DNA of 24,000 nt from Alphaproteobacteria bacterium (GCA_019749915.1 JAIEPE010000028.1:1-24000); one strand, 5' to 3'. Positions 1 to 13,885 are shown, counted from the stretch's first letter. The notes: generated by a model from the sequence alone, not told the origin. Made by a program: numbers and translations.

Positions 1-8
1 ATTAGTGT

Positions 9-76
9 TCGAATTAAACTGGATTTAATGTTCGATTTGGGCCGGATTCACCGTTCGATTTCGATCGGATTATGCA
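9..76 (+). repeat. Three tandem 23-bp units (TCGAwTT-N3-4-YYGGATT...) forming a transposon-end-like array that ends ...TGCA at 76
   Basis: The units start at 9, 32 and 55: tcgaattaaactggatttaatgt / tcgatttgggccggattcaccgt / tcgatttcgatcggattatgcac. The period is exactly 23 bp. The array abuts the truncated istB reading frame at 77. Confidence 0.6.
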
Positions 77-565
77 CCCTGCGGGACGGGGAAGACATTT
101 TTAGCCTGTGCCCTTGCTCACAAATCCTGTCTTTCTGGATACACCTCTCTTTACTGTCGTGTGGGACGTCTCTTATCTGAACTACAACTGGGAAAAGGGG
201 ACGGACAATACAGTAAGCGTATGACGGAGCTCGCTAAGACAGATGTTCTCATCTTGGACGACTTTGGCCTCTCTCCCCTTACAGAGGATCACCAACGTGA
301 TTTATTGGAGATTTTAGATGATCGCCACGACAAGCGCTCAACAATTGTTACAAGCCAAGTGCCCGTCAAGTTATGGCATGACTGCATAGGGAATGAAACG
401 CTTGCAGATGCCATTCTTGATAGGCTCGTTCATAACTCCTATCGGGTCGAGATTAAAGGAGAGTCGATGAGAAAGGCTCGGAGTCATATTGGAAAAGATA
501 AAAATAGCTTAAAGAAAGAGAAAACCCTCAATCCATTGTTGGTGAAGAAGAGCGATGAGGATTAA
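77..565 (+). pseudogene. istB: IS21-family IstB-like AAA+ transposition helper ATPase, 5'-truncated
   Basis: The frame is open from 29. From 77 it reads PCGTGKTFLACALA (Walker A), then VLILDDFG (Walker B) and DRLVHNSYRVEIKGESMR (typical IstB C-terminus). About 100 N-terminal residues of a normal IstB are missing. Upstream in frame is repeat DNA with a stop at 26-28. The only in-frame start is a GTG at 161, downstream of the Walker A. Confidence 0.8.
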
Positions 566-697
566 TCAAGATACAAAATCCTTAAAGGCTACATTTACAA
601 CAAGTAAAATCTTTGACGAAGGAGGGCACAATAAGGTAATTTAATAGAGAACATTGCTTCTCTTGGGAGTGTGGTTTGATTAAAGAGAAACCCACGA

Positions 698-810
698 CCG
701 GATTGAACCAGAAAAGATGACCGGATAAAATCGGAACACGCGCCCGGATTAAACCAGAACGGCCGACCGGTTAAATCCAGAATCACCCACCGCTTTCACC
801 GGAATACGCA
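698..810 (+). repeat. IS21-like right terminus: four tandem 23-bp units (CCGGATTAAACCAG core) plus a degenerate fifth, ending CGGAATACGCA
   Basis: The units start at 698, 721, 744 and 767: ccggattgaaccagaaaagatga / ccggataaaatcggaacacgcgc / ccggattaaaccagaacggccga / ccggttaaatccagaatcaccca. A degenerate unit, ccgctttcaccggaatacgca, spans 790-810. The array lies 130-245 bp downstream of the istB stop, where an IS21 right inverted repeat with multiple transposase sites is expected. Confidence 0.6.
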
Positions 811-864
811 ATTTTAGAATAGAACCAACTCTTCCCTCGTTTATTAATATGAGCTTAGCTTAAA

Positions 865-1599
865 ATGGAATCAAAGGACTGTTTTTCTCTTAAATTTAAT
901 GAAGTGCATATCTGGTCTGCTTGTTTGTCAGAGAATGAAACCAGTCTCCCTTATTTTACTAGCCTCCTTTCTCAGGATGAGCAGGAGAGGGCGAGCCACT
1001 TTAAGTTTTCCAGAGATCAGAAGAGATATACTATTTCTCGAGGTATTTTAAGAAGTCTTTTAGCGGGATATTTAAGGGAACCTCTCCAGAAAATAGAAAT
1101 TTTATACGGTCTTTGGGGAAAACCCTGTTTGCCAGAAGAAAAGGCTCTATCCTTTAATCTCTCTCATTCAGGAGACTATGCTTTATATGCGTTCACACAA
1201 GGTTATGAGGTCGGTATTGATGTGGAGTATATCGATGTATCTCTTGAGTTAGAAGACATGGCAAAGAGTGTTTTTTCCACAGCAGAATTTTCTCATTGGA
1301 AAGCACTCAATGCACAAGAAAAAATACATTCCTTTTTTAAGCACTGGGTTTCAAAAGAAGCTTTCTTAAAGGCTTCAGGAAAGGGGTGCTTAGAAAACAG
1401 ACATGCACTCACGTTAACTAAGACAAGCGATTTCAAACAAGAGCTCAAAAGCGATTTACGAGAGGAAGCCAAAATAATTTATCCCTATTGTTTTGAATCT
1501 ATACTTGGTTATGCAAGTGCCTTATTCGTTGAAGGACCTTCTTTGAAGCCGCTTCATTATATCTGGGAAAAAGATTTTTCTTGTCGCCCATTCTTTTAG
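865..1599 (+). CDS. 4'-phosphopantetheinyl transferase, Sfp/EntD type
   Basis: 244-aa ORF with PPTase motifs FNLSHSGDY, VGIDVE and WVSKEAFLKASGKG (W-x-x-KEA-x-x-K). Neighbours are NRPS accessory genes. Confidence 0.85.
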   Translation: MESKDCFSLKFNEVHIWSACLSENETSLPYFTSLLSQDEQERASHFKFSRDQKRYTISRGILRSLLAGYLREPLQKIEILYGLWGKPCLPEEKALSFNLSHSGDYALYAFTQGYEVGIDVEYIDVSLELEDMAKSVFSTAEFSHWKALNAQEKIHSFFKHWVSKEAFLKASGKGCLENRHALTLTKTSDFKQELKSDLREEAKIIYPYCFESILGYASALFVEGPSLKPLHYIWEKDFSCRPFF

Positions 1600-1778
1600 T
1601 GCAAGTGATTTATGCATATTAAACTGTATTACTGATAAAATCCGGATAGGAAATTCACACTTCACCCTTGAAACTGCCATACTGTGACATACTGCCTTAA
1701 CTGTGAGTTGCAAATCATTTTTGAATGTGTAAGAGTATTTTTTGTCCACATATAGAAACTGCATTAAAAGGAGAAAGT

Positions 1779-2000
1779 ATGTTTGAGCATTGTGAATCAT
1801 GGAGAGTGGTGATTAACATAGAGGATCAATATTCTATTTGGCCGACTTCCAAAGAGATTCCTCCAGGATGGAGAGAAGAAGGGAAGGCCGGGACAAAAGA
1901 TGAATGCCTTGCCCATATTAAAGAGGTTTGGGTTGATATGAGACCTCGAAGCTTAAAGGAACAGATGGATACGAAGCAACTCGAGTCTGAAGTCGCCTAA
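1779..2000 (+). CDS. MbtH-like protein (NRPS adenylation-domain chaperone)
   Basis: Signature [10 protein letters not shown]...PPGW...[17 protein letters not shown] with the three invariant Trp. The ATG at 1779 is preferred over the track start at 1725 because AAGGAG at 1768-1773 sits 5 nt upstream and the resulting 73 aa is the family-typical size. Confidence 0.9.
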
Positions 2001-2075
2001 AAGTAGCTAGGCCCTCAGCTAAGAGGTTTTGGTTTGCTGTAGGGAGGCTTAAACTCCTGCAGATCCATCTATCCT

Positions 2076-3281
2076 TTAAGCAAGGCGAAGATATTGATCT
2101 TCATTTTGCCACTTATAGTCCTGGATGGCGAGTGCGAGTCTTTTAATCCCCAGCTCTATAAGCTCTATAGGACAAAAGGCAAAGCTAAGGCGGAGACAGC
2201 TTTGAACATCGTCTCTTTCGCCAACTAAGAAGGCATTTCCTGGGATAAAGGAGACTTTTTCTTCTTCAAGAGCAAACTTAAATAATCTCTTTGTGTTAAT
2301 CGAGGGGGGTAATTTTCCCCATATAAAAAAGCCGCTTTTTGGAATTGTGAATTCCATCTCAGGAATGTATTTATGAAGAGAGTAAACCATGACATCTCTT
2401 TTTTCTTTGTAAGTCCCTCTAAGCTTTAAAATGCGTTCTGTTAGAATGTCCTTTTCAAAATAGGAGGTTATAAGCTTTTGACTGAAGGAACTTGTGTTAA
2501 TATCGAGACCTTCCTTTAAGATTTCCAATTTTTCTATGATGGGTTCAGAAGCAATAATCCATCCTGTTCTCAGAGAAGGAGCCAGAATCTTGGAAAAGGA
2601 TCCAATATAAAAAACTCCTTCCTTCCAAAAGGACTTTAGGGGAGGATCCACAGGGTCGTAATTTAAGAATCCATAGGCATCATCTTCTATAATAGGGATT
2701 TTATATTGTTTAGCTAATGTCGTAAGCTCAATACGTTGTTTCTTGCTTAAACTTGTTCCTAAGGGATTATGTCCCTCTGATATTGTATACATTAAGCTGG
2801 GCCGGGTATTTTTCTCTAAAATCTGTCTTAGTTCTTTCATATGGAGTCCACTTTGAAAACAAAGAGGACTGGGAATAAGATTTAGGTGCATCGCTTGAGC
2901 AACTTGGATGAACCCAGGATAGGTTAATTGGTCAACAAGAATATCCGCTCCTTCATTAGCAAATAGCTTCGTAAGTAGAGTCATTGCTTGTTGAGCGCCG
3001 GTGGTTAATAAGATTTCTTTGGGAGTACAAACTACCTGTTTCTCTTTCATAAACTCTGCAATGTGAGCTTTTAATTCATATGAGGGAGGTGAATATTGTA
3101 AGTTATGAGGAGAGAACAGTTCCTCATAACAATCTTTAAGCTCTGGAAGTCTTAGAAGATTATTATCTGGCCTTCCAAGAGAAAAAGAAATGATATCTGG
3201 GTTTGCTGTTGTTTCCAAAGCTTTTTGGACACCTGATTTTTCTAAATTTTTAATCCATAGAGGAAGAAGCTCTTTAAACAT
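2076..3281 (-). CDS. hpgT: PLP-dependent class I/II aminotransferase (2-aminoadipate/MocR-type fold); by context the 4-hydroxyphenylglycine transaminase
   Basis: 401 aa with fold-type I hallmarks: TTGAQQAM, HNPLG, IIEDDAYG, and SFSKILAPSLRTGW (PLP lysine in SxSK). It overlaps the upstream HmaS-like gene by 8 nt, indicating translational coupling. The family call is firm; the HpgT function is inferred from context. Confidence 0.8.
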   Translation of the reverse strand: MFKELLPLWIKNLEKSGVQKALETTANPDIISFSLGRPDNNLLRLPELKDCYEELFSPHNLQYSPPSYELKAHIAEFMKEKQVVCTPKEILLTTGAQQAMTLLTKLFANEGADILVDQLTYPGFIQVAQAMHLNLIPSPLCFQSGLHMKELRQILEKNTRPSLMYTISEGHNPLGTSLSKKQRIELTTLAKQYKIPIIEDDAYGFLNYDPVDPPLKSFWKEGVFYIGSFSKILAPSLRTGWIIASEPIIEKLEILKEGLDINTSSFSQKLITSYFEKDILTERILKLRGTYKEKRDVMVYSLHKYIPEMEFTIPKSGFFIWGKLPPSINTKRLFKFALEEEKVSFIPGNAFLVGERDDVQSCLRLSFAFCPIELIELGIKRLALAIQDYKWQNEDQYLRLA

Positions 3282-4359
3282 CGATCAGGGCTCTCTGTTG
3301 GTCTTTTTCAACGGCTGCATACAGAGCTTTGATGTTATTGCTCCCAAATCCAGTTGAGTTTTCTCTTTGGATGATTTCAATAAAAAAAGTAGGAAGGTTT
3401 TGGAGAGGGCGCGTAAACATTTGCATGAGATATCCATGTTTTTCTAAATCTACAAGGATGTTTAAGCGTCTTATCTCTTCCATGTTCTCCTGGAGAATTT
3501 TTTTGAGGGCAGGAGGGATATTTTCATAATAAGTTTCTGGAATTTCAAGAAACTTGATGCCATTATTTTTTAAATATTGTGCCATGCTAATAATATTCTT
3601 TGATGAAAAGGCGAGATGTTGAACACCAGCACAACCATGGTAGGAGATGAAGTTCTCGACTTGAGAGGGCTTTTTATTTGAAACCCCTTCAACTAAGACA
3701 AACTTAATGGTTTCAGTGGGGTTACTAATAACGACCGAGTTCATTCCACTCTCATTTGTCGTAATGTTTTCTGCAGAAAAAAGGTAAAACCCCAGCACAT
3801 CTTCATAAAACTGTCTCCATTTCCTAAGACTTCCTTTTTCAACGGCAATAGCAATATGATCTATAGTCTCCAAGTTAAAAGGGTTCTTTTTGAGAGGATA
3901 GTTTAAAGGTGTGTAAAACGGTAGTTCATGGGAAGAAGGGGCTTCTCTCTCAATAAATGAATGAACTGTATTTCCAAAAGTTGCAATGGTTGCTTTTATG
4001 ATTTTGCTCTTGCCGTCATCTATTTCAGTGGGTTCTAAAATAGAGACAGCTCCTGCTTTTAGGGTAACTTCATAAAGTTGGGAGACGTTGTTTGTCGTAA
4101 AGGCGATATCTTTGATGCTTTCATCGTGATTTATAACATGCTTTAAAAGAGAAGAGTCTCGATTTAGAGAGGAGCTAATTACCAACCTAATAGATTCTTG
4201 ACGAAGGAAATACGAGATTTGATCTTTGAGTCCTGTTTCTGGGCCTGCGTAAGCAATAATATCAAAACCAAACACAGATCTATAAAAGTTTGCTGCTTGA
4301 AAGGCATTGAAAACGTATATTTCTATATGATCAATAGCTGTTAAGGGAGTTTGGGTCAT
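3274..4359 (-). CDS. hmaS: 4-hydroxymandelate synthase (HPPD-family non-haem Fe(II) dioxygenase)
   Basis: 361-aa two-barrel VOC/HPPD fold with C-terminus FFIEIIQRENSTGFGSNNIKALYAAVE. The HPPD consensus GNFxxLF is replaced by NNIKALY (Ile343, Tyr347), the substitutions I recall as diagnostic for HmaS. The PxN of HPPD is replaced by VLV in IKFVLVEG. It is co-located with the Hmo and aminotransferase genes. Confidence 0.75.
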   Translation of the reverse strand: MTQTPLTAIDHIEIYVFNAFQAANFYRSVFGFDIIAYAGPETGLKDQISYFLRQESIRLVISSSLNRDSSLLKHVINHDESIKDIAFTTNNVSQLYEVTLKAGAVSILEPTEIDDGKSKIIKATIATFGNTVHSFIEREAPSSHELPFYTPLNYPLKKNPFNLETIDHIAIAVEKGSLRKWRQFYEDVLGFYLFSAENITTNESGMNSVVISNPTETIKFVLVEGVSNKKPSQVENFISYHGCAGVQHLAFSSKNIISMAQYLKNNGIKFLEIPETYYENIPPALKKILQENMEEIRRLNILVDLEKHGYLMQMFTRPLQNLPTFFIEIIQRENSTGFGSNNIKALYAAVEKDQQRALIDV

Positions 4360-4473
4360 AAAGCAGTGGCCTCTTGTTAATGTGATGTCAGCAGATGCAA
4401 TTCCTGATGGTAATGAAACTCATTTTCTATTAAATTTATCTTAGTCATTCAAGTTTGCAAAGGATACAACCAA

Positions 4474-5478
4474 ATGCTGTCAGATTCTAATATAAAATCT
4501 TGGTTTTTAAAAGAAGAAGAAAAGGGACTTGTCCCCGGACTCATCCCTGGGCTTCCCTTAGGGAGTTCTGGGCCTCTTGTATTAGAAGCTCAAGGAAAAA
4601 CCTTTAATCCTTTTGAGTGGGTTAAAGAACACAAATCTTCTCTTGAGAGCTGCTTAGTAAAACATGGAGGAATTCTCCTCAGGAACTTTAACATTCATTC
4701 TGTCTCCGAGTTTAATCGCATTGTGCAAAGTTTATCACCTGACCTTCTCGACTATGTCTATCGATCAACGCCAAGAACAAAATTAGGCGGAAAAATATAT
4801 ACGGCAACAGAATATCCTGCCGATAGGGTTATCCCTTTGCATAATGAGAATGCATATTCCAAATCTTGGCCCCAAAAAATCTTCTTTTTCAGTGTCATTA
4901 TTGCTTCTGAAGGGGGAGAAACGCCTATTGCAGATAGTCGAGATGTTTATAAACAAATAGATCCTGAAGTTAGAAGTAAGTTTGAAGAATATGGGGTTAT
5001 GTATACACGTAATTACAGTAAGGAAATTGACCTAAGCTGGCAAGAAGTCTTTCAAACGGAAAGTCAAGAGGCGGTTAACCAATACTGTAAGGATCACGAT
5101 ATTGAGTTTGAATGGAAAAAGGGAATTACTGAATTAACGACACGGCAAACATGTCAAGCGACTCTTGTTCACCCCACAAGTGGAGAATCCGTATGGTTTA
5201 ATCAAGCGCACCTCTTTCATATTTCTTCTTTAGATGAAGTGTCCCGTTTGTCTCTTATTAAAGAGTTGGGAGAAGAGAATATTCCGCGTAATGCTTCCTA
5301 CGGCAATGGAGAGCCTTTTGAAACTGACATTTTAGACCATATTCGCGATGCTTATGAGAAAGAGAAAATAAAGTTTAAATGGCATAAAGGAGACATCATG
5401 ATTCTTGATAATATTCTTATGGCCCATGGAAGAGAAACTTATAAAGGCGAAAGAAAGGTAGCCGTTGCTATGGCGTGA
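4474..5478 (+). CDS. TauD/TfdA-family Fe(II)/2-oxoglutarate dioxygenase, SyrP-like (amino-acid beta-hydroxylase of NRPS clusters)
   Basis: 334 aa with an HxE facial-triad motif in IPLHNENAYSKSWP, GGETPIAD, the distal His in ILMAHGRETYKG, and WFNQAHLFH. The overall pattern matches SyrP-like proteins as I remember them. Confidence 0.8.
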   Translation: MLSDSNIKSWFLKEEEKGLVPGLIPGLPLGSSGPLVLEAQGKTFNPFEWVKEHKSSLESCLVKHGGILLRNFNIHSVSEFNRIVQSLSPDLLDYVYRSTPRTKLGGKIYTATEYPADRVIPLHNENAYSKSWPQKIFFFSVIIASEGGETPIADSRDVYKQIDPEVRSKFEEYGVMYTRNYSKEIDLSWQEVFQTESQEAVNQYCKDHDIEFEWKKGITELTTRQTCQATLVHPTSGESVWFNQAHLFHISSLDEVSRLSLIKELGEENIPRNASYGNGEPFETDILDHIRDAYEKEKIKFKWHKGDIMILDNILMAHGRETYKGERKVAVAMA

Positions 5479-5536
5479 GTTCTCTTTCAAAAATGAAGAG
5501 AGATCAAGCTAAATGCTACCCTTACCTTACCTTATT

Positions 5537-6310
5537 CTACTCTTCTACACTTTCTCTTTTTTCCTGACTGTGCCGCTCTCCAATTTGATTAATGAGGGCT
5601 AAGATGTTTTTTTGATTATCCTTTATAAAGAAGTGTTCTCCTGGAAAAGAGAGATGTTCGAACTTTCCTGATGTATAGGCCGACCAGGCAAGGATCTCTT
5701 CTTCTGTAACTGTTTGGTCATGGGTGCCTGAAAGAGCCAGAATATCACAAGGAAGCGGCTGTGACTCTGAAAAGAAATGTGTTTCATAAATACTAAAATC
5801 ATTTTTGATGATTGGCAAAAACAACTCAAGAAGCTCATCATTATGAAGAATCCGTTCATCGATTCCATTGTAGACTTTTAACTCTTCCTTTAAGGCCTTA
5901 TCATCTAATTGGCTGAGATGTTTCATTCGCAAAGGCAAATGAGGGGCTTTTGTGGCAGAGACGATCATATGATGAGGATACATGCCGTAGTGTTGATGCA
6001 CAGATTTTACAAACTCAAACGAAATTAAAGCCCCAAGACTGTGCCCAAACACAAAGAAAGGCTTATCTTTATAGAGATGAAACCCTTCCCTTAACTGAGT
6101 TGTAATGTCTTTGAGGTTATTATTCAAAGGTTCAGTAAATCTATTTTCTCTTCCTGGGAGTTGAATAGAAACCATCTCAATATGAGGGGAGAGGAGTTCT
6201 CTCCAAGGGTAGTAAGCTGATGCCCCGCCTCCAGAATGGTGGAAGCAAAAAAGCCTAATAGTTGCTTGAGGTTTTTTTTCATACTCTAGAAACCAGGGAT
6301 GATTATTCAT
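5537..6310 (-). CDS. Type II thioesterase (NRPS/PKS editing, alpha/beta hydrolase)
   Basis: 257 aa with N-terminal LFCFHHSGGGASAY, the nucleophile elbow GHSLGA, and C-terminal FPGEHFF (catalytic His). This is the classic GrsT/SrfAD-type pattern. Confidence 0.85.
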   Translation of the reverse strand: MNNHPWFLEYEKKPQATIRLFCFHHSGGGASAYYPWRELLSPHIEMVSIQLPGRENRFTEPLNNNLKDITTQLREGFHLYKDKPFFVFGHSLGALISFEFVKSVHQHYGMYPHHMIVSATKAPHLPLRMKHLSQLDDKALKEELKVYNGIDERILHNDELLELFLPIIKNDFSIYETHFFSESQPLPCDILALSGTHDQTVTEEEILAWSAYTSGKFEHLSFPGEHFFIKDNQKNILALINQIGERHSQEKRESVEE

Positions 6311-6498
6311 TTTTTTACCTTACAATCTGGACAATACGAGAGACTAAAATCATCTGAGTTGAGGTAGCCTTCCCTTCTTTTTTTATTTTCATCTTATTCC
6401 TTCCCAATGAGTTTAATTTCTTGTAAGTTTTGCTTTGCCTGAAGTTAAAGTCTCTTTGAAAATGATCCGTTTCTTGGCTATTTTTAGATAAGTTAACT

Positions 6499-8301
6499 AT
6501 GAGAAAATTAGAGCATATGCAAGAAAGATTCAAGAACCTCCTAATTATAAAAGATTTACTCCCTTTCTTATGGACGAAGGAAGAAAAAATCCGAAGCTTA
6601 TTCCTGTTTGCGTTTGGGCTTATTTTTATCTCAATTGCGCTTGATCTCAGCATTCCCCTTGTTTTAAAGGAAGTTGTCTCTTGCCTTGCGATTCCGGATA
6701 AAAGCATGACCTATCAGTTATCCTTGCTCTTAGTGGCCTATGGAATTATTTGGACGCTCTCTCAAGTCATTCAAAACGTAAGACAGATCATTATGGTAAA
6801 GCCGCTGGAGAGTTGTATCCGACTTTTTTGTTCTAAGTTTTTTGATCATTTGCATTCCTTGCCTATGACATTTCATATGGATAGAAAAACAGGCTCTCTT
6901 ACCAATGCTTTAGAACGGGCCCAACATGGGTTTCCAGATGTGTTCTGGGGACTATTTTTATTTATTATCCCAACAATCATAGAGTTATTTTTAGCAGCCG
7001 CCATCTTATGTTATTTTTATGGAGCCATTTATGGATTTCTCTTACTCTTTATAGCCACTATTTTTATCATATTTACCCTATATGCCGCAAAGTGGGCATC
7101 TCACTTTCAAACAATGAGCAACGACCAACAATCAAACACAAATGCAAATATCGTTGATAGCCTCTTAAACTTTGCGAGCGTTAAGTACTTTAATAATAAA
7201 GAGCATGAGGTCTTAAAGTGCGATACTCATCTTAAAAAGAGAGAAAACCTCCTCGTTAAATCATTATCAAGTATGGAACTTGTTCAAATTGGGCAAAGCC
7301 TTATTATAGGAGGTGGACTTGTCTTACTGACCTACACAGCAGGAAAACAAACCTTATTAAACGTATATGATGTGAGTGATTTCGTTCTCATCAATGGATA
7401 TGTCCTACAGTTTGTGGCTCCTTTAAGTCAGATGGGGTTTATTGCAAGAAACGTGAGGAGAGGATTTAATGAACTTGCTGACGTCATGAAAATTTATAGA
7501 ACTAACCATTCATCTTCTCTACCTTCTGGAGATTCCTATTCACCCGATAAGTTAGAAAGCATAGAGTTTAAAAATGTTTCATTTGGCTATGAACCCTCTC
7601 GCCTTGTGCTCAACGACGTGAGTTTTACTCTTGAAGCTGGCAAAACCATTGGGATTGTCGGAGAAACGGGCTCAGGGAAATCAACAATTTCAAGTCTTCT
7701 TTTTAAATTCTATGACGTAAATTCAGGAAAGATTTTTATTAACAATGTGGACATTCAAAGTTTAGACTCAAATAGTCTCTACAAACTCCTCGGCATTGTT
7801 CCTCAAGACGTAACTCTCTTTAATATGAGCATTTATGAGAATATTCTTTATGGACGCCCAAGGGCTCAAAAAGAAGAAGTTGAGGAGGCTATAAAATTGG
7901 CTCACCTTGAACCTTTTTTAAAAAAGCTTCCTGATCATTATGATACGATTGTGGGAGAAAGAGGTTTAAAGCTCTCTGGAGGAGAAAAACAACGGATAGC
8001 TATTGCAAGGGTTCTTTTAAAGCGGCCAGCTTTATATGTTTTTGATGAAGCCACCTCATCTCTGGATCTTAAAACAGAAGAAACCATTATGAATAATATA
8101 GCCCCCCTCTTAAAAAAATCTACATCCCTTATTATTGCTCATCGCTTATTTACAGTAATTAATGCGGATGAAATCCTCGTCCTTCACAATGGGGTTATAC
8201 AAGAACGGGGCACCCACCTGTCTCTCTTAAAGGAAGAGGGGGGCTATGCTTCATTGTGGAGGGCTCAAGAAGAGGCTCATAAGAAGTCTTATGCAGCTTA
8301 A
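6499..8301 (+). CDS. ABC exporter, fused permease-ATPase half transporter (Atm1/ABCB-like)
   Basis: 600 aa with a hydrophobic N-terminal half of about 6 TM. Motifs: Walker A GETGSGKST, signature LSGGEKQRIAIAR, Walker B LYVFDEATS, H-loop IIAHRL. Confidence 0.9.
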   Translation: MRKLEHMQERFKNLLIIKDLLPFLWTKEEKIRSLFLFAFGLIFISIALDLSIPLVLKEVVSCLAIPDKSMTYQLSLLLVAYGIIWTLSQVIQNVRQIIMVKPLESCIRLFCSKFFDHLHSLPMTFHMDRKTGSLTNALERAQHGFPDVFWGLFLFIIPTIIELFLAAAILCYFYGAIYGFLLLFIATIFIIFTLYAAKWASHFQTMSNDQQSNTNANIVDSLLNFASVKYFNNKEHEVLKCDTHLKKRENLLVKSLSSMELVQIGQSLIIGGGLVLLTYTAGKQTLLNVYDVSDFVLINGYVLQFVAPLSQMGFIARNVRRGFNELADVMKIYRTNHSSSLPSGDSYSPDKLESIEFKNVSFGYEPSRLVLNDVSFTLEAGKTIGIVGETGSGKSTISSLLFKFYDVNSGKIFINNVDIQSLDSNSLYKLLGIVPQDVTLFNMSIYENILYGRPRAQKEEVEEAIKLAHLEPFLKKLPDHYDTIVGERGLKLSGGEKQRIAIARVLLKRPALYVFDEATSSLDLKTEETIMNNIAPLLKKSTSLIIAHRLFTVINADEILVLHNGVIQERGTHLSLLKEEGGYASLWRAQEEAHKKSYAA

Positions 8302-9409
8302 AGTCCCCTCAACCATAAGAGAAGACGATTTGCTCAACAACCTTTTTGATCTTAAAGGATTTGAACTTGCGGCTCACAATAAACTCTCAAAAGCAACTCA
8401 TGCTTTTTTTGCAGGAGGGGCAGGAGAGGGAATAACTCTGAATGAGAATGTTTCTGCCTTTGACGATCTGAAGCTCTTACCAAGGATTTTAAGAGACGTG
8501 CAAGAACGTTCTTTATCTACGACACTCCTCAATGAACGAATAGATTTCCCTCTTCTGATAGCTCCTATGGCTTTTCAGTGCCTTGCCCATCCTGAAGGAG
8601 AAGTAGCAACGACCAAAGCAGCTCAGGAACATAATATTCCCATGGTTGTGAGTACCTGCTCCACGTGCTCTTTTGAAGAGATAAAGGTACAAACAACAAT
8701 AGCCCCTTGGCTACAGCTGTATATCTATAAGGATCGAGAAATTACAAAGAATTTAATTCAGCTGGCCGAAGCTTCTGGCTATAAGGGGATTGTTTTAACT
8801 GTCGATGCTCCTCTATACGGCAAAAGAATTAACGAGCTTCATCATCCTCTCACACTTCCTTTAGATTTTGAGATAAAAAACTTACAAAATGCGGGCTTAA
8901 ATTTAAAAGACATACCTTCAAGCAAGCTAGCCAGTACCTTAGCGTCCTTGCTTGATCCCTCTTTAACTTGGAATGATATAGATTGGCTCCGTTCCATAAC
9001 GGGACTTCCCCTTATTCTTAAAGGAATTATGAACCCTAAAGATATTCAGATTGCTCAAGTACATGATATTGAAACACTCATAATCTCGAATCATGGAGGA
9101 AGACAATTAGACACAAGTCTTTCGGCACTTGAGACCTTAAAGCTCATGAGAGGCTTGGATAAAGGGAAGATGGAGTTCATCCTCGATGGAGGAGTCAGAA
9201 AAGGCGTCGATATTTTAAAAGCTCTCGCTCTGGGGGCTAAAGCTGTGATGGTCGGACGGCCTATTCTTTGGGGACTAGCCGTGGGAGGAGAAGACGGCGT
9301 AAAAAAAGTTTTGGCCATCTTAAAGGCAGAGTTAGATTTAGCGATGGCCCTATGCGGGTATACCTCGATAAACCAAATTAATGAAGAGGTGCTTTACTTC
9401 CCTGGGTAG
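8291..9409 (+). CDS. hmo: FMN-dependent alpha-hydroxy-acid oxidase; by context 4-hydroxymandelate oxidase
   Basis: Glycolate-oxidase/LldD family with SNHGGRQLD, LDGGVRKG and GAKAVMVGRP. The ATG at 8291 overlaps the ABC stop by 11 nt. The alternative ATG at 8246 has a GAGGGG Shine-Dalgarno-like run but a 56-nt overlap, so the start is uncertain. Confidence 0.8.
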   Translation: MQLKVPSTIREDDLLNNLFDLKGFELAAHNKLSKATHAFFAGGAGEGITLNENVSAFDDLKLLPRILRDVQERSLSTTLLNERIDFPLLIAPMAFQCLAHPEGEVATTKAAQEHNIPMVVSTCSTCSFEEIKVQTTIAPWLQLYIYKDREITKNLIQLAEASGYKGIVLTVDAPLYGKRINELHHPLTLPLDFEIKNLQNAGLNLKDIPSSKLASTLASLLDPSLTWNDIDWLRSITGLPLILKGIMNPKDIQIAQVHDIETLIISNHGGRQLDTSLSALETLKLMRGLDKGKMEFILDGGVRKGVDILKALALGAKAVMVGRPILWGLAVGGEDGVKKVLAILKAELDLAMALCGYTSINQINEEVLYFPG

Positions 9410-9412
9410 ATA

Positions 9413-10753
9413 ATGAAAAAAATCTCCGAAAAATACAAAAAAAGTAAAATCAGAAGAAAACTTATGAACCTAAAGAAATCCCTCCTTGTAGAAAAAAGAG
9501 TTATCGTTGCCTCCTCTTTGGGAAACTTGCTCGAAATGTACTCTTTCTCACTTTTTGCGTTGCTTCTCCCAACGCTCACACCCCTATTTTTCCCTTTATC
9601 AGACCCTTTGGCTGCGCTTTTTCTAGCTTATAGTGTTTTTTCTGTTGGATTCCTCGCCTATCCTTTAGGCGCACTTCTCTTTGGATATATGGGAGACAGA
9701 TATGGTCGGCGATTTGCTTTATCCCTATCCCTCCTGGGGATGGCACTGAGTACTTTCTGTATAGGGTTGTTACCTTCTTATGCAACACTCGGTATTATTT
9801 CTCCCTTACTCTTAGCTTGTTTTCGCCTTATTCAAGGAATTTGTGCAGGAGGAGAGTGCATGGGAAGTGGAATCTTTCTTATTGAGTCTACCTCAGCAAA
9901 AAACTCTGGATTTTTTGGCTCATTAGTTGCTGCCTCAGGGACTTTTGGCGCTCTTTATGCTTCTATTGTAAGTGTCATTTTTGTTTCATCAATAATGCCT
10001 TCTTGGGCGTGGAGAATTCCCTTCATCGTCTCAATTTTTATTGGAGGCGTTGGGTTATATCTAAGGAGTACGTTAGAGGAGAGCTCTTCTTTTAAGAATT
10101 CTTTTTCTAAAACCAATTACAGTCCTATAAAAGAAGTCTTTCGCCATCATTTTATCCCCTTATTATGTGCCGTCGGTATAGGGGCTCTTGGGACTGTTCC
10201 CTTTTATCTAACCATAGGGTTTCTTAACAGCTACTTAGTTTTTTTAAATATCATAACCATCCAACATAGTGAGAGTTTGAATTTTATCCTCTTGCTATTC
10301 TGTGTTCTTACGATGCCATTTGTAGGCTATTTGGCAGATAAGGTAGGTCACGTAAAAATTATGGTCTTGTCTGCTCTTCTTTCTTTAATGTACGCCTATC
10401 CATTTTTCTGCATTGTTTACACGGACTCCTTTTTTACTATCGTTTTTGCGGAGCTGCTCTTTCTAGCCCTTTCACAACTGTTTGTAGCGCCGCTCAATGC
10501 TTTCATGTCCCAGCTTTTTCCTGTACGTGCCCGATATACGGGGGCAGCTTTTGGATATTGCATGGGTATGGCTTTGTTTGGTGGGACAGCTCCTTATATT
10601 TCTTTATCTCTTATAAACTGGCTAGGAACGCCTCGCGCTCCTTTCCTCTATATGATGTTTATTTGTTTGATAGGGCTTATTTCTGTTCGTATGGGGAAGG
10701 GTTATTTAGCATCTGAACAAAGAGAGTATAAACTTATAGAGAGCGAGGTTTAG
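9413..10753 (+). CDS. MFS transporter (metabolite:H+ symporter / ProP-like subfamily)
   Basis: 446 aa with about 12 hydrophobic segments and the MFS loop motif GDRYGRR between TM2 and TM3. It starts 4 nt after the hmo-like stop. An alternative start lies at 9464. Confidence 0.85.
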   Translation: MKKISEKYKKSKIRRKLMNLKKSLLVEKRVIVASSLGNLLEMYSFSLFALLLPTLTPLFFPLSDPLAALFLAYSVFSVGFLAYPLGALLFGYMGDRYGRRFALSLSLLGMALSTFCIGLLPSYATLGIISPLLLACFRLIQGICAGGECMGSGIFLIESTSAKNSGFFGSLVAASGTFGALYASIVSVIFVSSIMPSWAWRIPFIVSIFIGGVGLYLRSTLEESSSFKNSFSKTNYSPIKEVFRHHFIPLLCAVGIGALGTVPFYLTIGFLNSYLVFLNIITIQHSESLNFILLLFCVLTMPFVGYLADKVGHVKIMVLSALLSLMYAYPFFCIVYTDSFFTIVFAELLFLALSQLFVAPLNAFMSQLFPVRARYTGAAFGYCMGMALFGGTAPYISLSLINWLGTPRAPFLYMMFICLIGLISVRMGKGYLASEQREYKLIESEV

Positions 10754-10837
10754 GGGAGAAAAAATGCAAAAACAAATAATAAAGAAAAGATAAGAAAAGC
10801 TGCCTAAATTTTAGCTCAAGAGGGAGAGATAATAAAT

Positions 10838-11092
10838 ATGAATCAAATGATGGGGACTTCTAAAGAAGCTCAAAATAAAATCCTCCATTTTTTAGAGGAA
10901 GAATTTGCCAGATTAAAATCTGATTGCCAGGAAGAATTTAAAAAGAAGGGCATGATAAAACGAAAAAACATAGATAAGAAACGACAGAAACTACATCAAA
11001 AGATAGAGGCTGTGTTCAAAATACATTCTTTAGATGCAGCAATAAAGGAAGGACTTCGTTCTCTCCAAGAGGAAATCAAGAATTTTACCTGA
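10838..11092 (+). CDS. Hypothetical small charged/coiled-coil protein (84 aa)
   Basis: ORF only. It is Lys/Glu-rich and helical-looking, with a weak GGGAGAG about 10 nt upstream. I recognise no family. Confidence 0.35.
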   Translation: MNQMMGTSKEAQNKILHFLEEEFARLKSDCQEEFKKKGMIKRKNIDKKRQKLHQKIEAVFKIHSLDAAIKEGLRSLQEEIKNFT

Positions 11093-11173
11093 ATGATAAC
11101 AAAGAAAAGAAAAATTAGGTGAAACTTCAATACAATCTCGTACATTAAAAAACCTGATTGCGGAAAGGTCCTT

Positions 11174-12736
11174 TTAAGAGACACAGGATAATGCCTCCCT
11201 TTCTGTGATTGTTTTGATCGCCATAATTCGATCCATTCGAAAAACTTTATCCTCCTGACTTGTGTGGCAAAAAGCTTTAATTCCCATGTAAGAGATGTTT
11301 TGATACTTCATCAACCTAACGTAAGTTGGTGTTATACGACGAGTGGATTTTTCATTGCTTGCATTGAGGTAAATAATCTCAAGGAGTTGCTGATTTACAA
11401 GGGCAGTTTTGATAAGTTCACTGGTTTCTTCAGGAGAAAAGTGCAGGGACGGTGTGTGCCTTTTAAGATGACTTATGAAAGTAACAACCTCTTCATCACT
11501 CCAGATGTGTCGTGGGTGAATCTGCTTTTTTAAGATCAACCCTTCAAGAGATGTACATCGACTTAAGGCCACATAAACTTGTCCGGACATAAAAGCACCA
11601 CTTCCAATATCAAGGATAACTTTTTGAAAGGTTTTCCCCTGACTTTTATGAATCGTGAGGGCCCAGGCGAGGGCGAGGGGGTATTGGCTGAAAGAGCCTA
11701 TTATCTCTGATTGAATCGCATTTTCTTCAAGAAAAAAGCGGTTGATTTCCCATTTGTGAGGGGAGACATGAACAACTGTCCCCTTTTCGAGGCATACAAC
11801 AATAGTGATATTTTCCTCTTCATCTTTTTCAAAGGCTAGAATTTTTCCCATCGTGCCATTGATCCAGTTCCCTTCAAGATCATTATTTACCATCATAATT
11901 TTGGCGCCTTCCTTAAGGGTTAAAGTCTGGCGTGTTGGATAATATTCTTGTCCAAAAGTTCCCTTGATCTGTGCCTCTGCGGTAAAAGGTTTGCCCTTTA
12001 AAGCATCCAGTTTGTCTGCATTAATAGTATCCGCGTTGCCGTTTTTTGGAGTAAGGTAAATATACCACTCCGATTCAAAATCTGGTTTCACCCGTTGGTT
12101 TAAGAGAGCCATATCCTCTTCTGTCATTGTCTCGTTACGAATGGCGTTTAAAAGGCGAATGAAATGATCCTCTTGCTGACGAAATATTTTCTCCAACTCT
12201 ATAAAGGTCATCTCGTATTTTTCAAAAAATAGAGCACTGAAAAAATAAGGGCTTTTATAGTGGGCTCCAAAAATGTCCTTTTCTTGAGAGGTGACAACGG
12301 GAGGCAATTGATAAAGGTCTCCAATAAAAATTATTTGGATTCCCCCAAAGGGCTGGGAAGGATTTTTTCCATTCAAACGTAGAAATCTATCCACGCAGTC
12401 CAATAAGTCAGCTCTCACCATAGAAATTTCATCAATAACAATGGCATCTAACTTTTTATAAATATTTTTCTTTTCTTTGCCTTTAATCGTTTTAATGGAG
12501 TTTAAGGTGACGCTATGTTTGAACTTAAAGAAGGAATGAATCGTTTGTCCCTGCACATTGATTGCCGCAACCCCTGTGGGGGCTAATACAACAATCTTCT
12601 TCTTTGTATGATGCCTAAAATAAGTGAAGAGAGTTGATTTTCCGGTTCCCGCTTTCCCTGTGATAAAAAGATTCTGAGAGGTATTCTCCATGAGGTCCAG
12701 AGTCTCATTAATGGCAGGATTAAAAGTAATATTCAT
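11174..12736 (-). CDS. Pif1/RecD-family SF1B helicase with C-terminal WYL-like domain
   Basis: Pif1 motifs: GKAGTGKST, LAPTGVAAINVQGQTIHSFF, IVIDEISMV, PFGGIQIIFIGDLYQLPPV, LTIHKSQGKTF, YVALSRC. The C-terminal ~80 aa (nt 11177-11419) reads RRITPTYVRL...ISYMGIKAFCHTSQEDKVFRMDRIMAI, resembling the WYL fold pattern (x-Y-L-x-A-x-C...R-x-F-R-x-D-R-I). Confidence 0.85.
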   Translation of the reverse strand: MNITFNPAINETLDLMENTSQNLFITGKAGTGKSTLFTYFRHHTKKKIVVLAPTGVAAINVQGQTIHSFFKFKHSVTLNSIKTIKGKEKKNIYKKLDAIVIDEISMVRADLLDCVDRFLRLNGKNPSQPFGGIQIIFIGDLYQLPPVVTSQEKDIFGAHYKSPYFFSALFFEKYEMTFIELEKIFRQQEDHFIRLLNAIRNETMTEEDMALLNQRVKPDFESEWYIYLTPKNGNADTINADKLDALKGKPFTAEAQIKGTFGQEYYPTRQTLTLKEGAKIMMVNNDLEGNWINGTMGKILAFEKDEEENITIVVCLEKGTVVHVSPHKWEINRFFLEENAIQSEIIGSFSQYPLALAWALTIHKSQGKTFQKVILDIGSGAFMSGQVYVALSRCTSLEGLILKKQIHPRHIWSDEEVVTFISHLKRHTPSLHFSPEETSELIKTALVNQQLLEIIYLNASNEKSTRRITPTYVRLMKYQNISYMGIKAFCHTSQEDKVFRMDRIMAIKTITEREALSCVS

Positions 12737-12964
12737 TGCGACCAGGCATCGTTTGCTGTTTTTGTAACAGTGTTCTTGCGGGATTGAGTAAACATTAAGA
12801 CAGGTTTGAAACTCATTTTAAGTTTTGATCATTTGTGGGGGTGGTTAAGTTAACCTTTTGCCTTACCCTGTTCTATTGGAAATGCGCTGCAGCCCCCTCC
12901 TGCATTTCGGAGATACCATAGCAAAAATTTTAAGGAAAGGAAATAAGAATCAAAAGTATAAGAA

Positions 12965-13210
12965 TCAGAAACGCCTCTCCCCAACAGACCTCCATCTTTC
13001 AAAGTTATCTTCATCGAACTCATTTTCTTCAAAACAAGTTATGAGAAAGCCCAGAAGCTGGAGGGCCTTAGGGCGGTTTTCATAGGCTTGAAGCTCATCT
13101 CCCGGGGTGATGTGGAAGGCATCCATGAGGCCGGATTTCTGTAAAAGGCCGCCCAGCATTATTAAAGTTCGAGTACGATTTTTACGGTCGACATTGTGTT
13201 GCTGTTTCAT
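12965..13210 (-). CDS. traD: TraD-like small conjugal-transfer accessory protein (Ti-plasmid TraD family, not the F-type coupling protein)
   Basis: The motif RKNRTRTLIMLGGLLQKSGL matches the R-K-x-x-T-R-x-x-I-x-LGGL-x-x-K-x-GL core of Ti TraD. The ATG at 13210 gives 81 aa and no overlap with the upstream gene. The track start at 13333 would overlap the traC-like gene by 107 nt. Confidence 0.6.
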   Translation of the reverse strand: MKQQHNVDRKNRTRTLIMLGGLLQKSGLMDAFHITPGDELQAYENRPKALQLLGFLITCFEENEFDEDNFERWRSVGERRF

Positions 13211-13226
13211 TTTCTGTTTCTCTCGA

Positions 13227-13559
13227 TTAAGAAGATTTCTGAGATGGTTTAGATTTTGCTGTAGCCGTTTCAAGCGGGAGGGTAGGGGGCTGCTTTTTAG
13301 ATTTTGAGCGCCGCAGAAATCGATCACCTGCATCTCGCCAGGCCTCCACCAGGGCGAGCCCTGTTGGGTCTTTGGTGGAGATTTTGTTCTTTAGAAAGAG
13401 CAGGGCTCCAAGGAGGATATTGTCCTCAACTTGGGCAAGATCAAGGGATGTCATGAGGGCTGCAATTTCCTGGTGGCGCTCTTTCAGAAGAGTCTGATGG
13501 TGGGATTGGAGAGTTGAGATTTTGGATTCAAGTTGGCGTAATTTTAATGAGACACTCAT
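13227..13559 (-). CDS. traC: TraC-like relaxosome accessory protein (Ti-plasmid TraC family), tentative
   Basis: 110 aa with an N-terminal coiled coil, then LDLAQVEDNILLGALLFL...WRDAGDRF, similar in layout to Ti TraC. It is divergent from the relaxase across the oriT gap, as in Ti plasmids. The ATG at 13559 has AAGGAG (complement of 13568-13573) 8 nt upstream. Confidence 0.5.
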   Translation of the reverse strand: MSVSLKLRQLESKISTLQSHHQTLLKERHQEIAALMTSLDLAQVEDNILLGALLFLKNKISTKDPTGLALVEAWRDAGDRFLRRSKSKKQPPTLPLETATAKSKPSQKSS

Positions 13560-13580
13560 GTGTTTTTCTCCTTTGTTCAA

Positions 13581-13605
13581 GCGCTTAGGTTTCTCGCCTA
13601 AGAGC
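13581..13605 (-). promoter_or_regulatory. Inverted repeat in the traC-like leader (possible operator)
   Basis: GCGCTTAGG (13581-13589) and CCTAAGAGC (13597-13605) form 8/9 complementary arms with a 7-nt spacer. The element begins 22 nt upstream of the 13559 start. Confidence 0.3.
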
Positions 13606-13730
13606 ATGGTTCACATTTTTGCCTCTTTACGGTTGTAGTATAGCAAACTTGCATAAACGACACAAGTATAAAAATATACATTGATACAAAAATATAAAAA
13701 TTATACACTCCTCATTAGGCAGTCATCTTT

Positions 13731-13776: not shown

Positions 13777-13885
13777 TGTGCTTAACGGCCACAGGCGAGA
13801 TGATAATTCAAGGTCAGCGGCAGACCTTTTTTAGAGACTTCGCATCACAACAACACAATGGATTGACGCCTAGAGTTAGGTGTCC

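Follow-up and report, generated by a model that had tools for sequence, protein, structure and literature searches.

A probable accessory half of a nonribosomal peptide synthetase cluster, with a putative 4-hydroxyphenylglycine branch, in conjugative-element DNA of low-GC Alphaproteobacteria

What do helper genes of a nonribosomal peptide synthetase (NRPS) do in a stretch of DNA that encodes no synthetase, and do three of their neighbours make 4-hydroxyphenylglycine (Hpg), an amino acid that is a hallmark of medically important peptides from actinomycetes? Both questions are raised by 24,000 nucleotides from an Alphaproteobacteria bacterium (GCA_019749915.1, JAIEPE010000028.1:1-24000), which at its full length we call the window. 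Between positions 865 and 10,753 lie nine genes, encoding a phosphopantetheinyl transferase (PPTase), an MbtH protein, a pyridoxal phosphate (PLP)-dependent aminotransferase, a dioxygenase related to 4-hydroxyphenylpyruvate dioxygenase (HPPD), a TauD-family dioxygenase, a type II thioesterase, an ATP-binding cassette (ABC) transporter, a flavin mononucleotide (FMN)-dependent oxidase and a transporter of the major facilitator superfamily (MFS). We think it likely that window 803-11115 is the accessory half of an NRPS cluster on a conjugative element of low-GC Alphaproteobacteria, and that this half includes an Hpg branch.

The link to a synthetase comes from related loci, which we designate by L numbers. 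The same gene block adjoins NRPS genes in at least eight related contigs, and from this adjacency we conclude that the helper island is part of an NRPS cluster. L025-L027 contain the 3' end of an NRPS gene, encoding the C-terminal subdomain of an adenylation (A) domain, a peptidyl carrier protein (PCP) and a thioesterase (TE), ~100 nt beyond the aminotransferase gene in convergent orientation, and the contig ends inside the NRPS. Next to the block, L004, L005 and L019 have MbtH and PPTase genes, which L022 lacks, and all four loci continue with a gene for a CmlA-like diiron beta-hydroxylase and then an NRPS gene that begins with formyltransferase, condensation (C)-like and A domains and is cut by the contig end. 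L020 carries the helper genes and CmlA, with an NRPS A-domain region ~3.4 kb further on at the contig end, and in L011 a C-A NRPS lies 3.7 kb from the gene for the HPPD-like enzyme. A distant counterpart is found on the closed plasmid p1 of 'Candidatus Bandiella numerosa' (NZ_CP104165.1), where an aminotransferase, MbtH, PPTase and dioxygenase set is situated ~26 kb from the NRPS, behind Tn3 copies. The preliminary description of this DNA, made from the window only, had proposed an NRPS accessory island with an aryl-glycine branch, and this proposal is upheld by the NRPS genes beside the block in relatives together with the dioxygenase pocket described below.

Family assignments were made from an open reading frame (ORF) listing and from Pfam (gathering thresholds) and NCBIfam scans. 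All nine genes pass their Pfam gathering thresholds and align full-length to orthologues. Window 803-11094 is colinear with L007 (JAIEQB010000045.1) at 91.2% nucleotide identity and window 2018-11115 with L025-L027 at 92.6%; the island spans ~803-11115. With dN/dS values against L007 of 0.10-0.28 for all nine, the genes are under purifying selection, and the nine intact genes of the preliminary description stand. Protein homologues at 70-96% identity come from metagenomes and from metagenome-assembled genomes labelled Alphaproteobacteria. Megablast of window 1-12000 against plasmid sequences gave no match, look-ups of proteins identical to the PPTase and the HPPD-like enzyme returned no record, and one scan each of genome and metagenome contigs yielded relatives but not the source genome.

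Within the window itself, Pfam gave no match to C, A, thiolation (T), formylation (F) or reductase (R) domains among ORFs of at least 70 aa, and tblastn with four NRPS proteins from related loci returned nothing in any frame at E ≤ 1e-6, in agreement with the earlier claim that no C, A or T domain occurs here. Homologue searches for a full-length partner NRPS with the F-C-A start and the PCP-TE end gave contig-end fragments only. Since all related assemblies break inside their NRPS genes, absence from a contig says little. Three whereabouts had been considered before, namely a synthetase beyond the left edge behind an insertion sequence (IS), a synthetase encoded elsewhere, and no synthetase at all with free products being exported; by analogy with the relatives the first fits best, and the NRPS would then persist in the source genome.

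The identity of the branch depends above all on the HPPD-fold Fe(II) dioxygenase encoded at 3274-4359 (minus strand). Its 2-His-1-Glu iron site is present, with QH and E motifs that align with those of the Streptomyces avermitilis HPPD (1T47), and it passes the NCBIfam HPPD equivalog cutoff (TIGR01263, 343 vs 277 bits). In the Protein Data Bank (PDB) the best-matching HPPD structures score 227-237 bits and two structures of 4-hydroxymandelate synthase (HmaS) 181-190 bits. This ranking of HPPD over HmaS, like that of HAO1 over 4-hydroxymandelate oxidase (Hmo) for the FMN oxidase, was dropped as a discriminator, and pocket residues and context were preferred. Compared with 1T47 the protein shows P243V, N245V, an exchange of K to S, F364I, F368Y and I371V. 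As positive controls for the HmaS pocket we used the HmaS ('hppD') of two Streptomyces plasmid Hpg loci, in which 'hppD' is accompanied by genes for an alpha-hydroxyacid oxidase and a PLP aminotransferase, by dpgABC or prephenate dehydrogenase, and by an NRPS. The signature of eight pocket positions reads SVVGSIYV in the window protein, STVPSIYV and STLPSIYV in the Streptomyces HmaS and SPNPKFFI in HPPD. For the Streptomyces coelicolor enzyme Hms, pocket and tunnel have been described as S221, V223, F350, G351, S352, I355, L358, Y359 and V362 (PMC3720870), and the homologous window residues are V, V, F, G, S, I, L, Y and V. According to the account given in PMC13260116, hydroxymandelate is made by S. 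avermitilis HPPD after F337I alone, and the HPPD Asn is critical to homogentisate formation. The Ser contacting the 4-OH group is kept in the window protein, and two pocket positions are unlike actinomycete HmaS, V221 (theirs T or S) and G225 (theirs P). Among the 120 best homologues, all those of at least 48% identity are without the HPPD Asn and have Ile or Val at the first Phe, and the canonical PN...FF pattern occurs only below 47% identity. Because the product-determining residues match HmaS despite whole-sequence scores that favour HPPD, we predict the enzyme to be HmaS-like, though not close to actinomycete HmaS.

In the same set of 120 homologues, most environmental proteins named '4-hydroxyphenylpyruvate dioxygenase' lack the HPPD Asn and first Phe and show P[VML]..IF or VV.SIY patterns instead. 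A large group of non-HPPD enzymes is probably mis-annotated as HPPD.

The FMN-dependent (S)-2-hydroxy-acid oxidase is encoded at 8246-9409 (plus strand, alternative start 8291; PF01070, FMN_dh, 397 bits). Its PDB scores are 307 bits for human HAO1 and 224 bits for the Amycolatopsis orientalis Hmo, and its identity to Hmo of the Streptomyces control loci amounts to 40-43%. By its sequence it is a typical (S)-2-hydroxyacid oxidase, for which we propose the role of 4-hydroxymandelate oxidase. The class-I PLP aminotransferase (2076-3281, minus strand; PF00155, Aminotran_1_2, 131 bits) falls in a LysN / multiple-substrate / MocR-like subgroup, with 1WST as best PDB match (198 bits). To judge from sequence comparison it is not orthologous to the actinomycete Hpg transaminase HpgT, and its proposed role is the conversion of 4-hydroxyphenylglyoxylate to Hpg. 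Both enzymes are placed in the Hpg route because of context, that is, because they recur with the HmaS-like enzyme across related contigs: the oxidase is linked to it in most related loci that reach far enough on that side, and the pair of HmaS-like enzyme and aminotransferase is kept in every related locus retaining both genes and also on the Bandiella plasmid. In the window the two genes share 8 nt (3274-3281), where the aminotransferase gene starts and the HmaS-like gene ends. Whether the other overlap reported earlier, 11 nt between the ABC transporter and oxidase genes, holds as well depends on the oxidase start, as 11 nt applies to the start at 8291 only and the first ATG, at 8246, gives 56 nt.

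The helper genes are those expected around carrier and adenylation domains. The PPTase gene (865-1599, plus strand) encodes AASDHPPT_N (PF22624) and ACPS (PF01648) domains, and its best NCBIfam match is HetI with 146 bits, below the equivalog cutoff. The protein is 80% identical to its orthologues in L007 and L008 and is predicted to be an Sfp/HetI-type 4'-phosphopantetheinyl transferase that primes carrier domains. The MbtH gene (1725-2000, plus strand; PF03621, 67 bits), predicted to encode a partner of NRPS adenylation domains, has orthologues in L007, L008, L010, L011, L020 and L021, and the stand-alone type II thioesterase (5537-6310, minus strand; PF00975, 126 bits) covers 224 of 226 profile positions; for these three proteins the domain models exceed the Pfam thresholds with full-length coverage. 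The TauD/TfdA-family Fe(II)/2-oxoglutarate dioxygenase (4474-5478, plus strand; PF02668, 139 bits) has as nearest structures the clavaminate-synthase-like At3g21360 and 9YUT, and it is probably an amino-acid beta-hydroxylase. Its former label, SyrP-like hydroxylase, is right at the level of the family and reaches no further.

Two exporters had also been described, and only one of them agrees with our matches. The ABC half-transporter (6499-8301, plus strand; PF00664 and PF00005), a fused transmembrane and nucleotide-binding protein of the MsbA / HlyB-like kind, has exporter families as best NCBIfam matches, all of them below the equivalog cutoffs. The MFS protein (9413-10753, plus strand), in contrast, matches the metabolite/H+ symporter (MHS) family (TIGR00883, 311 bits, cutoff 443), with ProP, TcuC and ShiA as next-best matches, and its gene adjoins the oxidase gene in L001, L007 and L025-L027. 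Characterised members of this family are importers, and the protein is probably of importer type, bringing in a precursor rather than sending out a product. No match to prephenate dehydrogenase was found in the domain scans of the window, as the preliminary description had stated. In some related loci, genes for phenylalanine hydroxylase or pterin-4a dehydratase lie beside the module, and we infer that these genes, together with the importer, might explain why a prephenate dehydrogenase is missing. The loci concerned form a variant of the cluster: L001 (2118-2492 and 16666-19130) and L012 (1-7526) encode pterin-4a dehydratase or a biopterin-dependent aromatic amino acid hydroxylase, and add an asparagine-synthetase-like enzyme, an Asp/Glu racemase and a conserved protein of 548-573 aa that has no Pfam match. 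L012 alone also has an FAD monooxygenase, a methyltransferase and two MbtH genes.

A tenth conserved gene travels with the island. It encodes a highly charged protein of 84 aa (10838-11092, plus strand) and has nucleotide homology in L001, L007, L020, L022 and L025-L027; in L001 and L025-L027 a gene of 83-84 aa is called at its position. The protein has no Pfam or PADLOC match. The idea that it is a stand-alone carrier protein was rejected, as a Ser-containing carrier motif is lacking along with any Pfam match. A further ORF of 130 aa at 6315-6707 (minus strand) is probably not a gene, having no family match and overlapping the start of the ABC transporter.

Taken together, we propose the following route. 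The HPPD-fold enzyme would convert 4-hydroxyphenylpyruvate to (S)-4-hydroxymandelate instead of homogentisate, the FMN oxidase would oxidize (S)-4-hydroxymandelate to 4-hydroxyphenylglyoxylate, and the translationally coupled aminotransferase would make L-4-hydroxyphenylglycine from it. An MbtH-dependent A domain of an NRPS encoded outside the window would then load Hpg. The PPTase would prime the carriers, the TauD-family enzyme may hydroxylate a residue, the type II thioesterase would clear mis-primed carriers and the ABC transporter could export the peptide. The MHS-type MFS protein probably imports a precursor and would thereby stand in for the missing prephenate dehydrogenase.

Several findings weigh against an accessory NRPS half with an Hpg branch. 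Over its whole length the dioxygenase is 34-44% identical to HPPDs and, depending on the alignment, 29-34% identical to actinomycete HmaS. The three enzymes had been compared with actinomycete pathways in the preliminary description; in a neighbour-joining (NJ) tree, which is crude and was rooted at the midpoint, the dioxygenase is found not among actinomycete HmaS but in a clade apart from them. The oxidase scores glycolate and hydroxyacid oxidases above Hmo, and identity between the aminotransferase and a Streptomyces HpgT is as low as 24%. No C-A-T module is present within the 24 kb of the window. In L007 the CmlA gene gives way to 2.1 kb of non-coding DNA, with no NRPS gene over 9.4 kb. 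Decay is seen in other relatives, as L008 has kept only a fragment of 52 residues of the HmaS-like enzyme (3165-3348) and has lost the aminotransferase, and L004 and L005 show a split PPTase and extra fragments of thioesterase and FMN-oxidase genes (L004:15014-15777 and 16340-17419). Finally, no Hpg-type code was found in the A domains visible next to related islands, of which very few are available: L022 has DILQLGLIW, a code for glycine, L020 a glycine-like code and L011 DIGTFGEVW, an unassigned code. These codes were read by alignment to the GrsA-PheA A4-A5 segment, which was checked only for internal consistency with published numbering, and since the automatic alignments were unreliable at position 278 they were re-read by eye.

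The L007 result, together with the decay, makes loss of the NRPS in the lineage of the window a live alternative. The NRPS half might have been lost by an IS21-mediated rearrangement, so that the nine genes were recently stranded and no peptide is made; we regard this as unlikely, though it deserves to be taken seriously. The left end of the window bears on it directly. Positions 1-802 (plus strand) hold an internally deleted IS21-family remnant with an IstB_IS21 match to profile positions 130-235 of 238 only. What is left is the C-terminal 134 aa of IstB (161-565), with the frame closed upstream and no istA, between arrays of 23-nt repeats at 2-47 and 678-792 in inverted orientation. The remnant sits where relatives carry the CmlA gene (L007 and L008) or the NRPS (L025-L027), and homology to L007 and L008 starts at ~803, 60 nt upstream of the PPTase start, so that the deleted remnant, which is not a full IS21 element, forms the left boundary of the island exactly at the end of homology to the CmlA side. 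A stranded gene set would also agree with the absence of an NRPS from the 13 kb that follow the island on its right, and with L007, the nearest relative sharing the PPTase-MbtH-aminotransferase junction, having only non-coding DNA after CmlA. On the other hand all nine ORFs are full-length with the low dN/dS values given above, every related assembly breaks inside its NRPS, and the window begins ~12 nt inside the outer end of the IS remnant.

If an accessory half with a functional branch is accepted, as we prefer, the trio could still act on a different substrate and make another aryl- or alkyl-glycine, for example phenylglycine from phenylpyruvate. Phenylpyruvate and further 2-oxo acids are known substrates of characterised Hms enzymes (PMC3720870), and the deviations at V221 and G225 would be compatible with such a change. 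Against it, the Ser that hydrogen-bonds the 4-OH group is kept, and a supply of tyrosine and 4-hydroxyphenylpyruvate is suggested by the genes for phenylalanine hydroxylase or pterin-4a dehydratase that adjoin the module in relatives. We consider a different substrate rather improbable.

It is very improbable, in our opinion, that the trio works independently of an NRPS and makes free 4-hydroxymandelate, 4-hydroxyphenylglyoxylate or Hpg for export by the ABC or MFS transporter. Such a function would suit the contiguity of three enzymes and two transporters in a window that has no synthetase, but MbtH, the type II thioesterase and the Sfp-type PPTase have no known role where carrier and adenylation domains are absent, and these helper genes are conserved with the trio under purifying selection and the block adjoins NRPS genes in relatives. 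The notion that an HPPD, a glycolate/lactate oxidase and a general aminotransferase of tyrosine or hydroxy-acid catabolism are chance neighbours of NRPS helpers can practically be dismissed, since, although the HPPD equivalog model is passed, global similarity to HPPDs and hydroxyacid oxidases is higher than to HmaS and Hmo and homologues are publicly annotated as HPPD, the Asn is lost and the first Phe is Ile or Val in the window protein and its homologues of at least 48% identity, no homogentisate-pathway gene was found in the window, and many contigs repeat both the overlap of the HmaS-like and aminotransferase genes and their association with genes for the thioesterase, the TauD-family enzyme, the ABC transporter and the oxidase.

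How does the proposed NRPS accessory half compare with known systems? The actinomycete Hpg sub-cluster (HmaS-Hmo-HpgT with or without prephenate dehydrogenase, Pdh), known from glycopeptides, the calcium-dependent antibiotic and ramoplanin/enduracidin, was represented in our comparison by the Streptomyces plasmid loci L016 and L017. In common are the residues of the HmaS pocket, the FMN 2-hydroxyacid oxidase and the PLP aminotransferase, besides MbtH and the NRPS context. Unlike these clusters, the window has a dioxygenase outside their HmaS group and an aminotransferase of a different class-I subgroup, no Pdh, an MHS-type MFS gene, relatives with phenylalanine hydroxylase or pterin dehydratase, and DNA of 38% GC on a TraA-type conjugative element. 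The low identities of the dioxygenase and the aminotransferase to their actinomycete counterparts argue against a recent transfer from actinomycetes. With HPPD (TIGR01263; 1T47) the dioxygenase shares the fold, the metal ligands and the identity level given above; it differs in the replacement of Pro243, Asn245, Phe364 and Phe368 by Val, Val, Ile and Tyr and in its biosynthetic genomic context.

The NRPS starts that follow CmlA in relatives (L022:15301-18226, L004:19243-21012 and L005:16109-17950) consist of N- and C-terminal formyltransferase domains, a partial C-like region and an A domain. We take them to resemble formyl-initiated systems with F-A-PCP loading modules, such as LgrA of linear gramicidin. 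Their sequence suggests an N-formyl-Gly starter for the related NRPS; this type of start is seen in relatives only, with a glycine A code, and its tie to the window island is by synteny only. In L007, a second TauD-family dioxygenase and a second aminotransferase (L007:3285-5462) lie beyond CmlA next to IS66 genes, a pair that presumably resembles the hydroxylase/PLP-enzyme pairs for modified arginine residues.

Plasmid p1 of 'Candidatus Bandiella numerosa' offers an NRPS region in a Rickettsiales endosymbiont. It shares with our locus the overlapping pair of HmaS-like and aminotransferase genes, MbtH, PPTase, ABC transporters and an HtpG gene; a pterin-4a dehydratase is present as well, transposons lie between the NRPS and the helper genes, and the replicon is conjugative. 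It differs in protein identities of 37-41%, in a pocket that reads VIKIF and is less HmaS-like, in having a short-chain dehydrogenase/reductase in place of the FMN oxidase, and in SbnA/SbnB and arginase genes. The plasmid (L013-L015) is closed, 136 kb in size and F-type conjugative, and its NRPS region is fragmented with a stand-alone formyltransferase; tblastn revealed a long NRPS-like stretch from L014 36459-41999 to L013 1-1734 that the PLSDB table leaves largely without annotation. In the literature we found reports of NRPS clusters in Rickettsiales symbionts, but none of an Hpg branch in these bacteria.

To the right, the preliminary description saw no boundary and took the IS debris as the only one visible; the left boundary is indeed this remnant, and comparison with L025-L027 adds a right boundary at ~11115. 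These loci join window 11115 directly to window 12794, and the TraD/TraA segment 12794-16035 directly continues the colinearity. The 1678 bp in between (11116-12793, minus strand) are absent from L025-L027 and form a window-specific insertion, which falls precisely between the 84-aa gene and the TraD-like genes. Its gene (11174-12736) encodes a PIF1/RecD-like helicase with a C-terminal WYL domain, and PADLOC matches it to RecD-like and PDC-S68 candidate defence proteins; the insertion is context and lies outside the biosynthetic island. Two overlapping TraD-like ORFs follow (12965-13607, minus strand) with weak TraD matches each. Relatives have two small separate genes at this site, and the paired ORFs may be normal rather than a frameshift. 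A TraA-type relaxase-helicase-primase of 1772 aa (13880-19198, plus strand; PF06412, PF03389, AAA_30 and Toprim_3) comes next, and the same relaxase adjoins the island in L011, on the side opposite the NRPS, and in L025-L027. Genes for a leucine-rich repeat (LRR) protein, an HtpG-like ATPase and a TOTE-type helicase with an archaeo-eukaryotic primase (AEP) domain lie in a row at 19649-23961. The AEP domain matches profile positions 146-229 only, which indicates that it is N-terminally truncated or split, and HtpG-like genes are likewise found beside the island in L001 and L024. Judged by its genes, the whole window reads as conjugative-element and defence DNA. No tRNA genes, as possible marks of an integration site, were found in it. 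GC content is 38.8% in the island and 41.8% in the rest of the window, and as no recognisable core host gene is present in the window, the host-like composition noted before has no standard there.

Who carries these genes? Related NRPS fragments are labelled Candidatus Paracaedibacteraceae and Rickettsiaceae, and F-box/LRR proteins, which suggest a eukaryote-associated lifestyle, are encoded in several related loci. The carriers are probably low-GC, protist-associated Alphaproteobacteria of a Paracaedibacteraceae-like kind, the taxonomy being taken from the source names of related proteins only.

In conclusion, we consider the locus to be a divergent member of the known NRPS clusters with an Hpg branch, presumably distinguished by its conjugative carrier, its probably symbiotic low-GC host and its non-orthologous transaminase. 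A tentative and more far-reaching hypothesis is that a mobile NRPS cluster circulates among intracellular protist-associated Alphaproteobacteria of a Paracaedibacteraceae-like kind, with a distant relative on a Rickettsiales plasmid, and that its Hpg supply was assembled independently of actinomycetes: an HmaS lineage would have gained the same pocket residues and been combined with a non-orthologous aminotransferase and an importer replacing prephenate dehydrogenase, and genome-reduced symbionts would make a formyl-initiated, hydroxylated, Hpg-containing peptide, possibly as a defensive or killer trait. There is also a practical lesson, as short-read assemblies break in NRPS genes and islands of helper genes consequently look orphaned. 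The whole clade of proteins around the dioxygenase is probably misnamed 'HPPD' in public records. An HmaS-type branch in 38%-GC conjugative DNA of probable protist symbionts would widen the host range of aryl-glycine formation, and it may betray a mobile, so far uncharacterised peptide natural product of symbionts, a kind of compound that is a candidate for a role in host defence.

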